From assembly GCA_020429745.1 (NCBI GenBank), contig JAGQKZ010000002.1:1-52015 (forward strand): a DNA stretch of 52,015 bases. Reading direction: 5' to 3'. The position numbers and the translations under genes were made by a program. Positions 42,077 to 48,966 of this stretch are shown piece by piece. The stretch's first letter is position 1, and every line of letters begins with the position of its first letter. This DNA comes from a candidate division WWE3 bacterium. Its GTDB lineage: Bacteria; Patescibacteriota; 4484-211; GCA-002791395. The notes below the pieces were generated by a model. It worked only from the letters and a program-made list of their open reading frames with translations. It was not told the origin of the DNA and ran no database searches.

Positions 42077-42105
42077 TTTGACACAGACATCACAAAGCTG
42101 TATAT
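42077..42105 (+). promoter_or_regulatory. promoter-like element of leader unit 1
   Basis: TTGACA 42077-42082, a 17-nt spacer, then TATATT 42100-42105. Confidence 0.5.
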
Positions 42106-42116
42106 TCCTTGACACA

Positions 42117-42188
42117 ATGCAAGGATTAACCTCACCTAACGCAGTGTCGTTTACGTCCCGCTATTTGGCGGGCTGCGCTGTTTTGTAA
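42117..42188 (+). CDS. 23-codon leader ORF 1 (MQGLTSPNAVSFTSRYLAGCAVL)
   Basis: ATG lies 11 nt after the -10 box. The ORF spans hairpin A (42157-42172) and stops at 42186-42188. Its geometry is identical to the ORF at 42825-42896. Confidence 0.35.
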   Translation: MQGLTSPNAVSFTSRYLAGCAVL

Positions 42189-42213
42189 ACCCTAGCTTTT
42201 ACAGGACCCAACA

Positions 42214-42236
42214 ACCCGCTAAACGGCGGGTTTTTT
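42214..42236 (+). terminator. intrinsic terminator of leader unit 1
   Basis: ACCCGCT-AAAC-GGCGGGT stem-loop followed by T6. Confidence 0.75.
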
Positions 42237-42377
42237 AGTTTTGGATTTTGCTAGTACAAAACGAGCACATTCACAAAGGTCTAATTCAAGTAGACAGGGT
42301 GTTAAACCCTAAACCCCAAAGATCGTGCACCTCTTGCACGAGAGATTTGTGTTTGCGAGAAACGAAAGGAGTAACCA

Positions 42378-42734
42378 ATGTTTCTCAACGTTCGACCCGA
42401 AGACGGTCTGGCGGTGGAGCTCGTTGCTGCGATGGGAGCTAGAATGATAGATCCCGGGCGGTACGAGCTGGATGGCGGCGGTGATCACGAGATCGCCGTT
42501 GTGTCGTTCACACAAGGCGCTATGCCGAAAGGAGTACTGCATCCAAGGAACAAGCCTACGCACTACCGCATCCTAAGGCGTAAGGGACCGCTGGATAGTC
42601 ACGTCAGTCCTCAGCTTCAGGGTGAAGTTGTCCTCGTGCTCAACCGAGATCAGGCCGAGTGGTTACTTGGGCAGGTGAAAAATATCCGCGGGCAGATCAG
42701 GATCGGCCAGACGGGAAAGATGTATACCCGTTAG
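42378..42734 (+). CDS. hypothetical protein (118 aa)
   Basis: SD AAAGGAG 6 nt upstream of the ATG. No motif recognised. A 5' UTR hairpin TCGTGCA/TGCACGA lies at about 42323-42341. Confidence 0.55.
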   Translation: MFLNVRPEDGLAVELVAAMGARMIDPGRYELDGGGDHEIAVVSFTQGAMPKGVLHPRNKPTHYRILRRKGPLDSHVSPQLQGEVVLVLNRDQAEWLLGQVKNIRGQIRIGQTGKMYTR

Positions 42735-42786: not shown

Positions 42787-42815
42787 TTGACATACTATCG
42801 GATGGGTGCTATTTT
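42787..42815 (+). promoter_or_regulatory. promoter-like element of leader unit 2
   Basis: TTGACA 42787-42792, a 17-nt spacer ending in TGC, then TATTTT 42810-42815. Confidence 0.45.
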
Positions 42816-42824
42816 TATTTCACA

Positions 42825-42896
42825 ATGTTGAATGTAAATCTAAATTACTGGCATCGCTATACAACCCTCCAAACGGCGGGCGTTAGTGCTGTGTAG
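42825..42896 (+). CDS. 23-codon leader ORF 2 (MLNVNLNYWHRYTTLQTAGVSAV)
   Basis: ATG lies 9 nt after the -10 box. The ORF spans hairpin A (42865-42880) and stops at 42894-42896. Confidence 0.35.
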   Translation: MLNVNLNYWHRYTTLQTAGVSAV

Positions 42897-42923
42897 TAAT
42901 AAGATTATTCACATAAACTGGTA

Positions 42924-42947
42924 ACCCGCCAAACGGCGGGTTTTTTT
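42924..42947 (+). terminator. intrinsic terminator of leader unit 2
   Basis: ACCCGCC-AAAC-GGCGGGT perfect 7-bp stem followed by T7. Confidence 0.75.
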
Positions 42948-43055
42948 ATGGCACATTAATAAACTGTTACTTACAGGAGAAGGCGCTTAATTACTTTCTC
43001 CAGGCTATCCATGTCAACGAATACAAGTTAACTAGTTGCTAAAAGGAGGCAAGCT

Positions 43056-44387
43056 ATGTATCACTCATTTGGAGACGCTGGCGATCAGCCATGGAAAAGA
43101 GGGTCAAGTGATGTTAGGGGTTCTGGTCAGCTTCGTGCTATTGCAACACCGAGGATCCATTGGAGTATAGACGCGCTGCAAAGTACCGAGCGGGCGATGG
43201 TCTCCTCCTTGCTTGAAAAAGTCAGGGGGGCAGGAGTTAATACTCACGGGGCAGCCGTTGCTGAGAGTTGTATCCTCCCGATAACGCAACAAAACCCCGG
43301 AACATACATAGTTGAATACGGTAGTAGTTCGGCTGTGGCGTGGGTACGCGAGGATATCGCCTTATTGAGGGCAGTCTCTATGTTGCCACGAGCAGTGGGG
43401 GTAGTTACTCTAGCTAAAGGAGGGCTCTCCCTCGCTGATTCTTTAACCGACACTCAAGCATCTTTTGGGCTGCTTGATGGGGCGGGAGACCTTAGGTCTC
43501 TTTTTACTACCGAACAGCTGTATCGACCTGCCGGGCAGGTTCCATTACCAAGGTGGTCTGATTTCCGGTCAATGTATCGGTCATTTGGCTTTTCTGCCTC
43601 GATGGAAATAATTAAGGCCTGCTTTGATGTAACTGCTGCTAGAAGCTGGTTCGACTTTGTTGGAGTGTATCGCTATGTGACGGGTCAGTTTGTGCGGTCT
43701 CTACTTGCAATCCCGAACGAATGGCGGGTTGTCAGCGGGGAGGATCTGTTTCTTTCGGCAGATGAGATAGCACAAGCGACTGTGACTGATTTTGCGAAGA
43801 CGGTGAGAGATGCTGCGCGTATCGCCTCATGGCAGAGAGCTCCCCGCGTACTCAACTTCCCATGCCAGAACAATGTGAGCCCTTGCGATCATTGGCACTA
43901 CATCAATGCTCGTGGACGGCAAGTCGGGTATAGTCCCGGACATGGTGCAGATGTTCCAAAAAAGTGTCGTGTCAGATCACCACAACAGACAACTGTCGGT
44001 CAGGCGATAACCTATGGCGCCGGGCTGTCTGGCATGGCACTCTACTATGCTATGGGTGTTCTTGGTAACTTGAGTGACCATGTGATCCTTGCAAGGGACT
44101 ACTCGAAGGGACAGGTATACCGTGTTCTTGAATCGTTTCTTCGTGATAAATCAAACCGCTTGCATGTGATTCCATATGGTGCTACATACCTTTATGCAAG
44201 AGGGTCTGATCCAGCAAAGAGTCTAGACTCGCTCGTTTTACTGGAAGTGCTTCTACGCTCTGGTAAGCCCGCAGATATTGTTCGTCAGATATTTGCAGGA
44301 TTTCCGGTTCCTTACAAGTCGCCTCACGAGGTATTTGTAGAGCTTGATTTGGATGGCACAGTAACAGTTTCACATCGGGAGGTGTGA
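43056..44387 (+). CDS. hypothetical protein (443 aa) with a C-terminal Rossmann-like GxGxxG signature
   Basis: SD AAAAGGAGG lies upstream. AITYGAGLSG (residues ~317-326), then HVILARD about 20 residues later, suggests a beta-alpha-beta dinucleotide/SAM-binding unit. The rest is unrecognisable. Confidence 0.7.
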   Translation: MYHSFGDAGDQPWKRGSSDVRGSGQLRAIATPRIHWSIDALQSTERAMVSSLLEKVRGAGVNTHGAAVAESCILPITQQNPGTYIVEYGSSSAVAWVREDIALLRAVSMLPRAVGVVTLAKGGLSLADSLTDTQASFGLLDGAGDLRSLFTTEQLYRPAGQVPLPRWSDFRSMYRSFGFSASMEIIKACFDVTAARSWFDFVGVYRYVTGQFVRSLLAIPNEWRVVSGEDLFLSADEIAQATVTDFAKTVRDAARIASWQRAPRVLNFPCQNNVSPCDHWHYINARGRQVGYSPGHGADVPKKCRVRSPQQTTVGQAITYGAGLSGMALYYAMGVLGNLSDHVILARDYSKGQVYRVLESFLRDKSNRLHVIPYGATYLYARGSDPAKSLDSLVLLEVLLRSGKPADIVRQIFAGFPVPYKSPHEVFVELDLDGTVTVSHREV

Positions 44388-44394
44388 AAAAAGA

Positions 44395-45192
44395 ATGGAG
44401 CTGAGTGCTGGAATATATTGTTTTTACAACGGTTATTCACACGCACCCAGCTCCGTCTTCATAACTATGAATAAAGAAGATAAAAATAAAACTAAATATA
44501 TTTTGGGGATTACGGCACACCCAGACGATCACATATCGTTCGCTGGGACTGTGATAAAGCTGGGCAAAATGGGTTACTCGTATGCCGAAATCGTATTGTC
44601 TGACGCTGAAGAGTCAGGTATGGTTAAAGGTGGTCAACGGCTTGTTCGTGTTGACAAAAGAGAACATCTCGACGTCAGGTGGAATACAGAGTTTGCCGAA
44701 GCCGCCCGTATTTTAAACATTAAGTCGCTGTACCGCTTGGGGTTGCCCAATATCGGTATTGAGTACTCGAAAAATACGGCGCTAACAATCATGCAAATAG
44801 TGCGAAGTGTCCGGCCGGAGATTGCATTTGTCCACCACCCAAGTGACTATATGAGCGATCATATTCAAGCAGCGTACGTTAGCTTGGAAGCAATTAAACT
44901 AGCAGCGTATTCATTCCGTTTAGATCTGGGTAATAACTGGAGAACGCCTGTGGTGTTACATTTTGAGGGTGTGAATCCAATTGACGCTCAGGTGTTGGTT
45001 GATATCTCTGCCGAGTTTGAAGAAAAACTAAAAGTACTTCACGCTTATGGATCACAATTTGGTGATAGGTCATTCCAATTGACCGAAGGTGCCGCAAAGT
45101 ATAGGGGGTACGCAAGGCGAACAGCCTTAGCAGAGGCTTTCGAGATCCCGAAGAACTATCCGATGTGGGAGATTGGAGGTGCACTGAAATGA
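44395..45192 (+). CDS. PIG-L/LmbE-family N-acetylglucosaminyl deacetylase
   Basis: LGITAHPDDHISFAG (AHPDD metal motif) and HHPSDYMSDH. SD GGGAGGTG lies before ATG 44395 (alternative ATG at 44467). Confidence 0.85.
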   Translation: MELSAGIYCFYNGYSHAPSSVFITMNKEDKNKTKYILGITAHPDDHISFAGTVIKLGKMGYSYAEIVLSDAEESGMVKGGQRLVRVDKREHLDVRWNTEFAEAARILNIKSLYRLGLPNIGIEYSKNTALTIMQIVRSVRPEIAFVHHPSDYMSDHIQAAYVSLEAIKLAAYSFRLDLGNNWRTPVVLHFEGVNPIDAQVLVDISAEFEEKLKVLHAYGSQFGDRSFQLTEGAAKYRGYARRTALAEAFEIPKNYPMWEIGGALK

Positions 45193-46277
45193 ATATTTTA
45201 TTCGCCCATGACTACCCACCTATTGAAGGTGGCGGTCTTGAGGTAAACACCTTTGCAGTAGCGTCTGAGTTAACTGCTAGGGGGAACGCGGTGACGATCA
45301 TTACATCAAGGAGAAGCTCTGAGACATTCATGGGTGGTGTCCCAGCTGAACAGAACGGGGTTCAGATTAGAATCGTTAAAGACCTTCAGGAAGTTGCTGG
45401 TTATGTGCAGGCCGCAGATGTTATTTGTCCGCAAATGACGTTTTCTCTTCGAGACTGCGGGATTGAAGCGATCCGCCAAGCGTTGGCGATGGGCAAGGTG
45501 GTCATTGTTTCACAACACACGGCAACCAATCATATTCCCTACTCAAACTTACAACGGTTGTCTCTTTCACAGCGCAATGTCAGGCTTGAAGAGTATCGAG
45601 ACTTACTCAATAACGAAGGGGTAGCGGTAGTGGCTCCATCAATAATGCTCGCGGATGATTTAACCAGTTTTGGGGTTGTCAAGGATATCACCATAATCCC
45701 GATCGGGATCGAGCAGCCAAATACAGAAAAGTCTGACAAAAAGTATGATCTGGTAACAGTAGGAGAGGTTTCATACTTGAAAGGCCTCAACTATCTCTGC
45801 GATTCGATTCGGCTATTAAAAAATGAGGGAATGGTCGTGACGGCAGCTGTAGCGGGAGGTGGGTCGGAGTTTGAACTGGTGAAGGCGCTCGCATCAAGCC
45901 TCGAAATTGCAGATCAAATTGATTTTCTAGGCTATATACCGCATAAACGTGTAAATAACGTGCTGGCACAGTCAAGGGTTATGGTACACCCTTCACTATC
46001 TGAGGTCATGCCGCTTGTTATCATTGAAGCTATGCTTATGAACGTGCCTGTCGTCGCGAGCAATGTTGGGTTTTGTGGCTCGTTGTTGAAACAATCCGGG
46101 GGTGGGGTAGTGTTTGAACGTGGTGATGTGGCGGGTCTTGCTGCAAGTATTAAGATATTCCTTAGTAACGAGAGGCTATGTACTGCGATGGGGCAGTCCG
46201 GTAAAGTTTATTGTAAAGAGAGGTACACGATCGATGTTCAAGTGGATCGATTGGTAAAAATGATCGAATCGCGCTAA
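45189..46277 (+). CDS. family 4 (GT-B) glycosyltransferase
   Basis: MNILFAHDYPPIEGGGLE N-terminus and C-terminal EX7E region HPSLSEVMPLVIIEAM. The ATG overlaps the deacetylase stop (ATGA). Confidence 0.9.
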   Translation: MNILFAHDYPPIEGGGLEVNTFAVASELTARGNAVTIITSRRSSETFMGGVPAEQNGVQIRIVKDLQEVAGYVQAADVICPQMTFSLRDCGIEAIRQALAMGKVVIVSQHTATNHIPYSNLQRLSLSQRNVRLEEYRDLLNNEGVAVVAPSIMLADDLTSFGVVKDITIIPIGIEQPNTEKSDKKYDLVTVGEVSYLKGLNYLCDSIRLLKNEGMVVTAAVAGGGSEFELVKALASSLEIADQIDFLGYIPHKRVNNVLAQSRVMVHPSLSEVMPLVIIEAMLMNVPVVASNVGFCGSLLKQSGGGVVFERGDVAGLAASIKIFLSNERLCTAMGQSGKVYCKERYTIDVQVDRLVKMIESR

Positions 46278-46353: not shown

Positions 46354-47709
46354 CTAGAACGGTAAGATGCTTACGATCTTGTAGGCGAAACCGTTTGCCG
46401 CTTTGTTTATAGCGTTGAGCAAAACGCTTTTTGTCGAGCGCCAGTGGTCTAACTTAGCACCAAGCGTGAGTGAGCTGACGTATGCTTGAACGTCGTCTTC
46501 CGATCGATTAGCGTACTTTGCGTAGTCGACAAGGAATCGATTGGTAGCATTGACGATTCTTTGCGGATCGCCAGTTTTAAACGCAATCTCGTACTCACCG
46601 AAGAAGTCCGACATCGACGTAAGTGTGGAAGAGAGACTTTCAGACAAACCTTCCGACCCTTCCGGCTTTGGGAGTTTTGCAAACTGAGCCTGGTAAGTGC
46701 TTAACTCGTCACTGATCTCGCCGATTGTTTTTACAAATATGTCAAGGTCGTTTGTCTCAAATGCCTGATCTAAAGCCACTGTCATGTCGTCAAGGCGTTT
46801 GGTTATTACAATAGAAAACTCCTCGAAACCGACCACAACGTCTACATCGTCGACAAACTCTCGTCCGGCGGCAGAAGCAGCTTTGATTTTTGCCAACAAG
46901 TCCTCATTTATCGTCGAAGTTGCCGCCATACCCTCGATCTTTTCGACAGCCTCCTGTTTTTCAATAGCAAGATCGGAATATGATTTGGCGGTGTAGACCA
47001 GCTGAGATTGTGCCTCGACCTCAGCATCGTAAGCTAGGGTGTTAGATCCTGCCACGTCGCCGAACTGTCCAGCAGATTCATCGCCCACCATATTTTTCGA
47101 GTCTATGTTAGCAGTAAATGCTAGTCGTTGTGCCTGCTCCTGTATGGTGCCGATCTGTCTCTCCTCCTGCACATCTTGGTAGTAGTTGACCATGTTATTG
47201 ACGTGTTTCAGCGTGTCTGAAAAAACCTGCTCGGCCTCGTTTAAACTCAGCTCAGTTGAGTCGGCGATGCCGACAACGTCTTTCGTGGGAACAACGGCTA
47301 CGAAGTAGACAACGATCAATAGAGCGGCAATAACTGTTGTAACGCTAAGTCCGGCTAATACCATGCGCATCGTCTTACCGTCAGAGGGCATTTGGTCAGT
47401 GTCTGTTGGTATGCGGAGTCTGTTGTCGAGACTTAGACTATTAGGCACGGCTGGGGCTTGTTGAGTTGAGATCTTTGGCTGTGGTGTAGGCGTGTCTCCA
47501 AGTGCAGCAGCGCTACTTAGTGCAGATACGTTGGGTGATGGCTTTGCTTTTTGAGTGTTTACCTGATTTGGTGATTTGGGTGTGATGACGGTTTCAGGGT
47601 GTGCGGTCTCTTTCTGTGGAACGACCGAACTTATGAACTTGCCTGAGCACGCTGCGCACATTAAGTTATTAACCTTCTCAGTTTCTTTACCGCAGCTAAT
47701 GCACTTCAT
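46354..47709 (-). CDS. hypothetical membrane-anchored protein with an N-terminal zinc ribbon
   Basis: CISCGKETEKVNNLMCAAC, a Pro/Thr/Ser-rich linker, a TM helix (LAGLSVTTVIAALLIVVYFVAVV), and a ~300-aa helical ectodomain. Confidence 0.7.
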   Translation of the reverse strand: MKCISCGKETEKVNNLMCAACSGKFISSVVPQKETAHPETVITPKSPNQVNTQKAKPSPNVSALSSAAALGDTPTPQPKISTQQAPAVPNSLSLDNRLRIPTDTDQMPSDGKTMRMVLAGLSVTTVIAALLIVVYFVAVVPTKDVVGIADSTELSLNEAEQVFSDTLKHVNNMVNYYQDVQEERQIGTIQEQAQRLAFTANIDSKNMVGDESAGQFGDVAGSNTLAYDAEVEAQSQLVYTAKSYSDLAIEKQEAVEKIEGMAATSTINEDLLAKIKAASAAGREFVDDVDVVVGFEEFSIVITKRLDDMTVALDQAFETNDLDIFVKTIGEISDELSTYQAQFAKLPKPEGSEGLSESLSSTLTSMSDFFGEYEIAFKTGDPQRIVNATNRFLVDYAKYANRSEDDVQAYVSSLTLGAKLDHWRSTKSVLLNAINKAANGFAYKIVSILPF

Positions 47710-47742: not shown

Positions 47743-48966
47743 TCACTTAAGCAAGGTACAGGCTTTTTTTAGTGCCGATAGAAATGCATCGACCTCAGAG
47801 ACCGTATTGTAGATGCCGAAACTTATGCGCAAGGTGGAGTTTGTTTTTAATACTTGGGTATGAAGGGGGATTGCGCAGTGGTTGCCGGCACGGACCATAA
47901 TACCGTCTTCGTCGAGTAGCGTCGCAAGATCAAACGCATCGATACCATCAACGTTTAGACTGACAACGCCAAGGTTTTGGTCACCCGGTGAACTATAAAT
48001 CTTTAGACCGGGGATATTTGTACTTTCAAGTCCGTCGAGTAAATATCGACGTAACCCTTGTTCGTGTTCCATGATCTTGTCTATTCCTAATGTTTGAACG
48101 AACTTAACTGCCGTTGCTAGACCAACGACTCCGGCGACGTTTGGTGTGCCCACCTCAAAGCGATGTGGTACTTTGTTGAGGGTAAAACTCGTCCAGGTTA
48201 CGTCTTCAACCGTCCCGCCGCCACTGTGTGGGGATCCGAGACTGCCGAGAACGTTTTTTTTACCGTAAAGAACGCCTATCCCCTGTGGTCCGTAGAGTTT
48301 GTGTGCTGAGAAGGCGAGGAGGTCACATCCCAGGTCTTTTACGTCCGCGGGGATATGTCCAACCGATTGTGCCGCGTCAACGAGGCAAATTGCCGATGGG
48401 TGATGTTTTTTCACCGTTGCAATAAACTCCTTTACGGGATTGATCGTCCCTAAAACGTTTGAAGAATGGGGGAGCGCGAAGATACGGATCTGATTTTCAC
48501 TGACTATCTTTTCCAGCGCCGTTTGGTCGAGGGCGTAATCTGATGTCAGCGGAACGTATCTGACCGTTAACGCCTTCTCTTTTGCCAGCGCCAGCCAGGG
48601 AGTTAGGTTGCTGTGGTGGTCTATTTGGGTTAGAAGAATAACATCTCCGGTTCGGTAGTCGAGTTTGCTTAACATCTCTGCCGTCAGATTAATTCCGTCG
48701 GTTGTGTTCTTGGTAAAGATAACCTCATTGACGTCGGCGTTAATAAAACCCGCAACAACTTGTCGCGCCGCCTCGTAGCGAGCGGTGGCATCGCGTGTCA
48801 GGCTATGATTCCCACGCCCGACGTTGCCCTCATAAAGTTTGTAATGCTCGCTAATCGCATCGATCACGGATTGTGGGAGCTGCGTCGTGGCGGCATTGTC
48901 GAGATATATCAACTGATCGTTTGCTTCCAAATAAGGGAACTGCGACCGTATCTCTTTAATGTTCAT
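47743..48966 (-). CDS. sufS: SufS/CsdA-type cysteine desulfurase (class V aminotransferase)
   Basis: PLP lysine in FSAHKLYGPQGIG. Active-site loop RAGNHCA. Starts 5 nt after the def stop. Confidence 0.9.
   Translation of the reverse strand: MNIKEIRSQFPYLEANDQLIYLDNAATTQLPQSVIDAISEHYKLYEGNVGRGNHSLTRDATARYEAARQVVAGFINADVNEVIFTKNTTDGINLTAEMLSKLDYRTGDVILLTQIDHHSNLTPWLALAKEKALTVRYVPLTSDYALDQTALEKIVSENQIRIFALPHSSNVLGTINPVKEFIATVKKHHPSAICLVDAAQSVGHIPADVKDLGCDLLAFSAHKLYGPQGIGVLYGKKNVLGSLGSPHSGGGTVEDVTWTSFTLNKVPHRFEVGTPNVAGVVGLATAVKFVQTLGIDKIMEHEQGLRRYLLDGLESTNIPGLKIYSSPGDQNLGVVSLNVDGIDAFDLATLLDEDGIMVRAGNHCAIPLHTQVLKTNSTLRISFGIYNTVSEVDAFLSALKKACTLLK

Follow-up and report, generated by a model that had tools for sequence, protein, structure and literature searches.

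The stretch analysed here, referred to as the window, comprises 52,015 nt of contig JAGQKZ010000002.1 (assembly GCA_020429745.1) from a candidate division WWE3 bacterium, whose genome we label G000. Its plus strand carries three tightly packed genes, encoding a 443-aa protein, a PIG-L/LmbE-family deacetylase and a GT4 glycosyltransferase, and these are preceded by a leader composed of a promoter-like sequence, a short open reading frame (ORF) and a terminator. The 443-aa protein is predicted to have the fold of BshC, the putative cysteine-adding enzyme of the bacillithiol pathway, and its gene adjoins that of the deacetylase in relatives from several families of the phylum. We propose, with moderate confidence, that these genes form an operon under leader control and serve an amino-sugar pathway of three steps, built on the chemical principle of bacillithiol and mycothiol synthesis. 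The features of the locus are as follows.

43056-44387, plus strand: gene of the 443-aa protein, a putative ligase with a predicted BshC fold, class I aminoacyl-tRNA synthetase (aaRS)-like, of a sequence-orphan family
44395-45192, plus strand: PIG-L/LmbE-family zinc deacetylase, 265 aa (PF02585), with an alternative start at ATG 44467
45189-46277, plus strand: GT4 (GT-B, retaining) glycosyltransferase (PF00534, PF13439)
43043-43049, plus strand: Shine-Dalgarno (SD) sequence AAGGAGG, 6 nt 5' of ATG 43056 of the 443-aa gene
42787-42949, plus strand: leader unit 2, with promoter-like sequence, 23-codon ORF and terminator
42378-42734, plus strand: SD-led ORF of 118 aa, behind leader unit 1
42078-42239, plus strand: leader unit 1, preceding the 118-aa ORF and tentatively assigned to the cassette

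The genes are packed as the initial annotation had described, and its coordinates for them proved correct. A gap of 7 nt (44388-44394) separates the 443-aa gene from the PIG-L gene, and the PIG-L stop and the GT4 start overlap through ATGA at 45189-45192, an arrangement by which the GT4 gene is evidently translationally coupled to the deacetylase gene, as had been proposed. In addition, both downstream genes carry SD sequences of their own, GGAGGTG at 44378-44384 (10 nt 5' of ATG 44395) for PIG-L and GGAGGTG at 45175-45181 (7 nt 5' of ATG 45189) for GT4. The longest ORF of the GT4 gene opens at GTG 45165; the start at ATG 45189 gives MNILFAHDYPP, which agrees with the N-terminus of a homolog. 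The PIG-L start is ambiguous between ATG 44395, which has the SD sequence and the 7-nt gap, and ATG 44467 (M25); because a homolog shows no conservation of residues 1-24 and the Pfam domain is matched from residue 39 on, translation may equally start at ATG 44467, and the M25 start agrees better with the conserved N-terminus of the homologs.

The strong SD sites had been noted as unusual for this window, and the count bears this out: an SD-like motif precedes all four cassette genes (including the 118-aa ORF) and three of the 35 other large ORFs, so that four of the seven motifs among the 39 large ORFs belong to the cassette. Many of the other genes begin immediately 3' of a TATAAT-like box, which suggests that they are transcribed as leaderless mRNAs. 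The cassette thus differs in its mode of translation initiation from the rest of the host genome, and the same is true of relatives at other loci.

The window organism is a candidate phyla radiation (CPR)/Patescibacteria bacterium. Its genome assembly amounts to 0.97 Mb in 86 contigs (82% complete), of which the window is contig 21; its class counts no more than 13 species genomes, and relatives bear the public labels 'Candidatus Saccharibacteria' and 'WWE3'. The window DNA was present in activated-sludge metagenomes from four studies, and no RNA dataset was among the listed sources.

The 443-aa protein and its predicted fold

The initial annotation could place the 443-aa protein in no family, and our searches agreed with it. 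The protein matched no Pfam model (E up to 0.1) and no NCBIfam model; a PDB profile search returned nothing (best E 0.5), and the ESM Atlas gave no useful match (its own model had a pTM of 0.15, and all matches were below 0.9). Relatives were nevertheless recovered from very large protein sets, four by a word-index search of 5.8 billion proteins and 18 by an exhaustive HMMER scan of 1.84 billion representative proteins; nine of the 18 match over most of the length, and the others were first seen through their C-terminal third only. A second word-index search with the wider family alignment yielded no new relatives, and a related-locus search with the family alignment yielded a single locus from a genome and two from metagenomes. 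Conservation extends along the entire protein, and the N-terminus, MY.xF/Y, recurs in P0002, P0004 and P0008; the 443-aa ORF is evidently a genuine gene. When a hidden Markov model (HMM) of the family was run over a sample of 401 Patescibacteria genomes, full-length matches were obtained in G000 and G001 only, and C-terminal matches in G003, G088 and G154. With this distribution, the family is rare and so far confined to Patescibacteria-type genomes.

Two groups make up the family. Group 1 shares the blocks YGSSxxVAWVRED, R.LNFPCQ..C..WH, KKCR, GAGLSG..IY, LARDYSKG.V, P.G and DSLV..E...R. The group-2 proteins (470-505 aa) align with group 1 along their entire body and have the blocks YGTTD.ANVFELL, G.WLGGA.IY, LVKDS.AG.VH and DASIDPWVFLELL.R, together with an extra N-terminal domain of ~100 residues. 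Residues E99, G321, G326, Y330, G337, G352, P373, G375, P419 and G434 are invariant in both groups. A Cys/His knuckle formed by C270, C277, H281 and C304, which begins at the C-terminal end of the strand at 264-269, is specific to group 1 and missing from group 2; it is a probable zinc site, for which a structural role is likelier than one in substrate binding. A CxxC version of this knuckle is present in P0011, a protein that aligns with group 1 through its body and was the weakest of these in HMMER, matching only in part.

The AlphaFold2 model of the 443-aa protein, built on an 11-sequence alignment, reached a pLDDT of 88.1 and a pTM of 0.90. In a VIA-align comparison with 48,161 PDB representatives, BshC (4wbd) was the best match at Z 16.1 (348 residues, root-mean-square deviation 5.2), followed by class I LysRS (1irx) at Z 12.7; all others scored 7.9 or less, MshC (3c8z) at 6.1 among them. 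Since chance-level best matches in this comparison lie at about Z 7-8, the BshC match is clearly above chance. The alignment runs nearly end to end (model residues 9-437 against 8-539 of the 4wbd chain), with ~190 residues of the 540-residue BshC chain unaligned. Foldseek against the PDB likewise placed B. subtilis BshC (4wbd) first (E 8e-6, probability 1.0), then class I ArgRS and LysRS. The relative from G154 (470 aa, 21% identical to the window protein) was modelled separately (pLDDT 85.5) and again gave BshC as the best VIA-align match (Z 15.4), with class I LysRS at 10.7 and the rest below 8; Foldseek ranked BshC sixth for this model, within a group of similar E-values. The initial annotation had called for a structural comparison with BshC and MshC, and its outcome is a confident model of an enzyme with BshC as nearest neighbour, then class I aaRS including MshC.

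The 443-aa protein is accordingly predicted to consist of a Rossmann-type core interrupted by inserted peptides, with BshC as the nearest fold and class I aaRS next; the model contains the Rossmann-type core with connecting-peptide insertions seen in BshC (4WBD). The C-terminal alpha-helical coiled-coil dimerisation domain of BshC was not seen in the predicted model, as DSSP found no helix longer than 19 residues. Within the model, the YGSS..AWVRED loop follows the first strand, GAGLSG (residues 321-326, nt 44016-44033, with G321 and G326 invariant) precedes the helix at 326-336, and RDYSKG follows the strand at 342-347. We infer that these three loops take the places of HIGH, the ribose-binding glycine and KMSKS of class I aaRS. 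GAGLSG had been read as a dinucleotide or S-adenosylmethionine (SAM) signature; the GxGxxG motif of NAD-, FAD- or SAM-binding proteins was rejected for it, because the model appears to place it in the latter half of a nucleotide-binding fold of the aaRS type, shortly ahead of the strand that runs into the invariant D-Y-S-K-G loop. Given this putative placement of GAGLSG and of the D-Y-S-K-G loop, ATP or ADP is a likelier ligand than NAD or SAM.

Gene linkage and the candidate pathway

The two partner genes could both be assigned to families. The deacetylase matches PF02585 at 1.4e-15, above the cut-off, and has the signature motifs AHPDD (residues 41-45) and SDH (154-156), the latter corresponding in the alignment to the PDH within the HPDH of 2ixd, a B. 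cereus LmbE-related protein that was the best match in the PDB sequence search. BshB1 (TIGR04001) is the top NCBIfam match for all ten deacetylases considered, those of the window and of nine orthologs (75-109 bits, in every case under the cut-off); with 83.4 bits against a cut-off of 182.5, the window protein is by sequence a PIG-L member and not a BshB1 equivalog. The glycosyltransferase matches PF00534 at 2.4e-34 and PF13439 at 7e-10 and has its E-x7-E motif within SEVMPLVIIEAM. Its best NCBIfam model is EpsE (exopolysaccharide) at 83 bits, with BshA (TIGR03999) fourth (63.8 bits against a cut-off of 273.7, over the C-terminal half only), and its best PDB matches are tied between PglA and B. 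anthracis BshA (2jjm, 3mbo). It is best described as a generic GT4 member rather than a BshA equivalog. The GT4s of the clusters are mutually 23-41% identical, and those of G299 and G154 have BshA as their top NCBIfam model, weakly. The affinity of the pair, for which ordinary cell-wall polysaccharide enzymes had been named as the alternative, was settled for the deacetylase, which stands nearest BshB1 among the NCBIfam models, but not for the GT4.

We then used the window PIG-L protein as a query (E < 1e-30) and found orthologs in ten of the 401 Patescibacteria genomes. In eight of the ten (G000, G001, G003, G088, G154, G299, G011 and G004) the PIG-L gene has a member of the 443-aa family, recognised with an HMM built from both groups, as its immediate neighbour; the members in G299, G011 and G004 are 436, 614 and 610 aa long. 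Of the remaining two, G196 gave a weak match and G039 none. Family homologs adjoin PIG-L in every locus with a readable context, a count that leaves aside P0002, P0004 and P0006-P0010, which are the nearest homologs in group 1. The co-occurrence with PIG-L that the initial annotation had put up as a test was therefore observed, and the third partner is GT4 at some loci and a kinase at others: G000, G001 and G299 have a GT4 there, G003, G088, G011 and G004 have an APH-fold kinase, and G154 has both. With the window GT4 as query, no orthologs were found in the kinase-type genomes. Since the third gene varies among loci, the conserved core is the BshC-fold protein plus the deacetylase.

The three genes could in principle be functionally unrelated neighbours, given how frequent GT4 and PIG-L genes are and how compact CPR genomes tend to be. 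We consider this highly improbable. The family and PIG-L are paired in eight or nine of the ten genomes, across several families of the phylum; the window trio recurs with its order kept in G001 (L002) and at L040, and an order shared with a related genome indicates that the arrangement is not due to chance. Furthermore, the junctions are tight, one being translationally coupled and the other a 7-nt gap, and the genes have a common leader and an SD usage that is rare in the rest of the window.

Just 3' of the cassette, in convergent orientation, lies a gene for a SufS-type class-V aminotransferase (cysteine desulfurase), both in the window (47743-48966, minus strand) and in G003 (L009:10969-12195, minus strand). 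As the window cassette is of the GT4 type and that of G003 of the kinase type, the same chromosomal slot holds different cassette variants; the adjacency could reflect inherited synteny or a link to cysteine/sulfur metabolism. Between the cassette and SufS in the window, another convergent gene (46354-47709, minus strand) encodes a 451-aa protein of no family, with a zinc-ribbon-like CxxC...CxxC start at the N-terminus, a linker of low complexity rich in Pro, Ser and Thr, a single predicted membrane helix and, at the C-terminus, a large domain; this gene is missing from the syntenic G003 locus.

The initial annotation took GT4 and PIG-L for a core of the mycothiol/bacillithiol type and the 443-aa protein for the possible ligase, an idea that the BshC fold and the linkage to PIG-L support. 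We propose the following route. Judging from its family, the GT4 would transfer an N-acetylhexosamine, most likely N-acetylglucosamine (GlcNAc) from UDP-GlcNAc, onto an acceptor hydroxyl. The PIG-L zinc deacetylase, whose family and signature motifs point to this activity, would then strip the N-acetyl group and expose the 2-amine. Finally, the 443-aa protein would acylate the 2-amine with an activated amino acid, a chemistry suggested by its fold and gene linkage and expected to be nucleotide-dependent (ATP or ADP). The operon product would most likely be an N-aminoacyl-glucosaminide. Cysteine has a precedent as the amino acid from bacillithiol and mycothiol only, and a thiol product is possible but the less probable outcome. 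Also less probable than not is the full scenario in which some CPR bacteria make a new low-molecular-weight thiol or aminoacyl-glucosaminide through a sequence-orphan BshC-fold ligase, switched by a leader peptide that bears a conserved patch.

A number of results weigh against this pathway, and several of them bear on alternatives to it. Fold resemblance is no proof of function, and even for BshC the reaction has yet to be reconstituted (PMC5790435). None of the 17 family members in the alignment matches a Pfam model, PF10079 included, at E up to 10, and TIGR03998 (BshC) finds nothing on the 443-aa gene and only 14.8 bits, on another gene, in the same genome. The GT4 and PIG-L proteins fall well below the BshA, BshB, MshA and MshB cut-offs; for MshA and MshB the window proteins reach 52.2 bits (cut-off 462.5) and 20.8 bits (cut-off 224.35). 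Moreover, the NCBIfam matches of the deacetylase comprised only four models, all from thiol pathways, and the PDB sequence search scored BshB-type proteins and archaeal diacetylchitobiose deacetylases alike, at ~1e-10. Bacilliredoxin (PF06491) and YtxJ (TIGR04019) were found in none of five cassette-bearing genomes, among them G000, whose 82% completeness makes its negatives provisional, and YpdA/Bdr (TIGR04018) gave only sub-cut-off, TrxR-like matches in these five (at most 72 bits against 340).

Such results bear most directly on whether the operon makes genuine bacillithiol (Cys-GlcN-malate) with very divergent BshA, BshB and BshC orthologs. The gene triad would agree with this, as would BshC as the best fold, BshB1 as the best NCBIfam model and B. 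anthracis BshA among the best PDB matches of the GT4. The DinB_2 superfamily includes bacillithiol and mycothiol transferases, and a DinB_2 protein above the cut-off is encoded in G000 (G000:C44:5633-6082, 38.8 bits), the sole one among the cassette genomes tested (none in G001, G003 or G299). However, the equivalog cut-offs are missed (83 against 182.5 and 64 against 273.7 bits, with no BshC match at all), the coiled-coil domain is absent from the model, bacilliredoxin, YtxJ and YpdA are missing as described, and the GT4 partners are 23% identical across lineages or swapped for a kinase. Canonical BshC was found neither in the window genome nor in any of the 401 Patescibacteria genomes. A survey of bacillithiol genes names Firmicutes, Deinococcus-Thermus, Chlorobi, Bacteroidetes, Acidobacteria and one Chlamydia, and no candidate phyla (PMC6282198), and our literature search found no paper that ties a bacillithiol-type pathway to Patescibacteria or Saccharibacteria. 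Because GT4 and PIG-L miss the equivalog cut-offs and the BshC models match nothing, the operon is, on present sequence comparisons, not a canonical bsh or msh pathway, and genuine bacillithiol is a very improbable product.

A kinase stands in place of the GT4 in half of the relatives, so the route to the substrate may differ among them, which also weighs against the route proposed above. It would suit amino-sugar salvage, with PIG-L acting on a scavenged GlcNAc compound and the BshC-fold protein serving as an activating enzyme of the HUP nucleotidyltransferase type; in the relatives, an APH-fold kinase would supply the phosphorylated substrate. APH-fold kinases stand beside five relatives, the deacetylase is as near to the archaeal chitobiose deacetylases as to BshB, and the nucleotidyltransferases PPAT, NMNAT and ATP sulfurylase occur in the fold list at Z 5-6.6. 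Yet BshC and class I aaRS score Z 16 and 12.7 where these simple nucleotidyltransferases stay below 7, the window cassette has a GT4 and no kinase, and the kinases fit no specific NCBIfam sugar-kinase model. We regard salvage as improbable.

Genomic context raises the main rival to a small-molecule pathway, a target in the cell envelope. In G154 the cassette is flanked by YfhO, GT2 and PMT_2 (GT-C) genes, and in G004, a genome from the family of the window organism, the trio (610-aa relative, PIG-L and APH-kinase) lies inside the division and cell-wall (dcw) cluster (L025, G004:C2:91000-104000), between FemAB and the MraY side, in the order FtsI, MurA-like, FemAB, trio, a 208-aa orphan ORF, MraY, FtsW, MurG and FtsQ. 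If B. subtilis bshC (yllA) lies beside the dcw cluster (mraZ) as well, a point on which a literature check turned up nothing, such a context would be compatible with a soluble product. On the strength of the G154 and G004 contexts, envelope tailoring stays the main rival: the deacetylase and the BshC-fold ligase would act on a lipid- or nucleotide-linked envelope precursor, for instance the GlcNAc of peptidoglycan, of a teichoic-acid-like polymer or of a glycolipid, and the aminoacylated amine would end up in a surface glycoconjugate instead of a soluble metabolite. The PMT_2 gene near the G039 PIG-L and the EpsE match as best for the window GT4 (83 bits) point in the same direction. On the other hand, the three proteins have no membrane segment or signal peptide (sequences read by eye), leader-peptide attenuators are more typical of metabolic operons, and the context varies, the cassette lying near SufS and Def in the window, between KsgA and TrpRS in G001 and near RlmN and TGT in G299. 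Taken together, we consider envelope tailoring unlikely.

The leader units and the 118-aa reading frame

Expression of the operon appears to be gated by the short-ORF terminator/antiterminator leader in front of it. The terminator-containing leader recognised in the initial annotation was recovered as leader unit 2, with a promoter-like TTGACA-17-TATTTT at 42787-42815, a 23-codon ORF at 42825-42896 (MLNVNLNYWHRYTTLQTAGVSAV) and the terminator AACCCGCC-AAAC-GGCGGGTT, of which the hairpin spans 42923-42942 and the T run extends to 42949. The terminator 3' arm, GGCGGG, is duplicated within the ORF at 42875-42880, and this copy is a possible antiterminator strand. Leader unit 2 therefore contains the parts of an attenuator, namely a promoter, a short ORF and an intrinsic terminator, together with an alternative pairing that reaches into the ORF.

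A similar layout (promoter, short ORF, terminator, ~100-nt spacer and strong SD) was found 5' of the homologous gene at six loci, in G003, G004, G011, G299, G088 and L041, and a copy of the terminator 3' arm lies in or just after the short ORF in G000, G003, G004, G011 and L041. The leader ORFs encode a patch of aromatic, His and Arg residues a few codons 5' of the segment with the 3'-arm copy:

G000: NYWHRY
G299: RWFHRYF
G003: MWKHPR
G088: KWHFRG
G011: NYHRLF
L041: WFCFYHQNR
G154: HHAYRWLRF

Besides window 42825-42896, the leader ORFs lie at L009:7396-7524, L026:4312-4389 and L041:3024-3122, and on the minus strand at L007 upstream of 9618, L027 upstream of 9496 and L008 upstream of 10221. 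Trp occurs in seven of eight leader ORFs and His in all eight, a count that serves as a lead since the ORFs were hand-picked. The conservation of the patch at the peptide level at distant loci suggests that the leader peptide is a nascent-peptide or tRNA-charging sensor belonging to the cassette. Beside the Trp-containing leader ORFs, we note that a tryptophanyl-tRNA synthetase gene lies 3' of the GT4 in G001 (L002:4850-5698), the nearest genome to share the three-gene operon.

Leader unit 1 has the promoter-like TTGACA-17-TATATT, a 23-codon ORF at 42117-42188 (MQGLTSPNAVSFTSRYLAGCAVL) and, at 42213-42232, a terminator hairpin with a T run behind it. The 118-aa ORF behind it has a GC content of 0.563, against a window mean of 0.482. 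In a tblastn search it matched the G003 protein of group 2 within its N-terminal extension (L009:7687-7845) with 38% identity over 53 aa (E 0.001), the match running from residue 1 to residue 1, and it was the sole match among 597 window ORFs to an HMM of group-2 N-termini (E 0.0025). The similarity is weak but specific, and the ORF may, tentatively, be a free-standing copy of the domain that is fused in group 2.

Comparison with known systems

CPR/Patescibacteria are thought to be biosynthetically minimal, and bacillithiol-type pathways are not listed for them (PMC6282198). If our proposal is true, some CPR bacteria invest in a special metabolite or a surface decoration by means of a regulated amino-sugar ligase cassette, and the conserved leader suggests attenuation or arrest-peptide control in genomes with mostly leaderless mRNAs. 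How bacillithiol synthesis is completed is still a biochemical puzzle; another family, distinct in sequence but alike in fold and wired to the same deacetylase, would offer an independent system for finding the activated substrate, and a small family with split, fused and zinc-knuckle forms could open a route to BshC chemistry.

Both known pathways that combine a GT4, a PIG-L deacetylase and an aaRS-like ligase yield Cys-GlcN-X thiols (PMC5790435). The window operon contains the same three enzyme classes as the bacillithiol pathway (BshA, BshB1/B2 and BshC): by structure both the 443-aa protein (Z 16.1) and its G154 relative (Z 15.4) come closest to BshC, BshB1 is the best NCBIfam model for the deacetylase, and the ligase-like gene is linked to a deacetylase and a GT4. 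It differs in that the 443-aa protein has no detectable sequence homology with BshC (Pfam PF10079 plus PF24850, TIGR03998), is ~100 residues shorter and lacks long coiled-coil helices in its predicted model, in the Cys/His knuckle that group 1 adds, and in the leader-peptide attenuator, which distinguishes the cassette from bacillithiol operons. With mycothiol synthesis it shares the logic of a GT4, a PIG-L deacetylase and a class-I-aaRS-fold ligase that joins an amino acid to the amine of GlcN. However, MshC is a clear CysRS paralog, whereas the 443-aa family resembles MshC only at Z 6.1-6.9 (3c8z, Z 6.1 for the window protein), no better than other class I aaRS, and the window operon contains no GNAT (MshD) gene.

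Among the synthetases themselves, whose catalytic domains match the 443-aa fold at Z 6-12.7, class I LysRS (1IRX) is the second-best fold for both models (Z 12.7 and 10.7) and has an interrupted Rossmann-type core in common with them; judging from the order of secondary structures, the glycine-rich and D-Y-S-K-G loops would stand at the places of the ATP motifs. Unlike class I aaRS, the 443-aa protein has no recognisable anticodon-binding domain, and the family alignment contains neither HxGH nor KMSKS, with YGSSxxxAWVRED and RDYSKG at the putatively corresponding positions. A canonical CysRS of its own is kept in each of the five cassette genomes tested. As for the leader, trpL, pheL and hisL are leader-peptide attenuators and TnaC and SpeFL nascent-peptide sensors; the window leader resembles them in its promoter, short ORF and terminator with alternative pairing. 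It differs in having an aromatic/His/Arg patch instead of a run of one regulatory codon, and, in comparison with the trpL/pheL/hisL type, in preceding a sugar-modifying operon rather than one for amino-acid synthesis. What would set the system apart from all of these is a sequence-orphan family of putative BshC-fold ligases wired to a BshB-like deacetylase and provided with a conserved leader.

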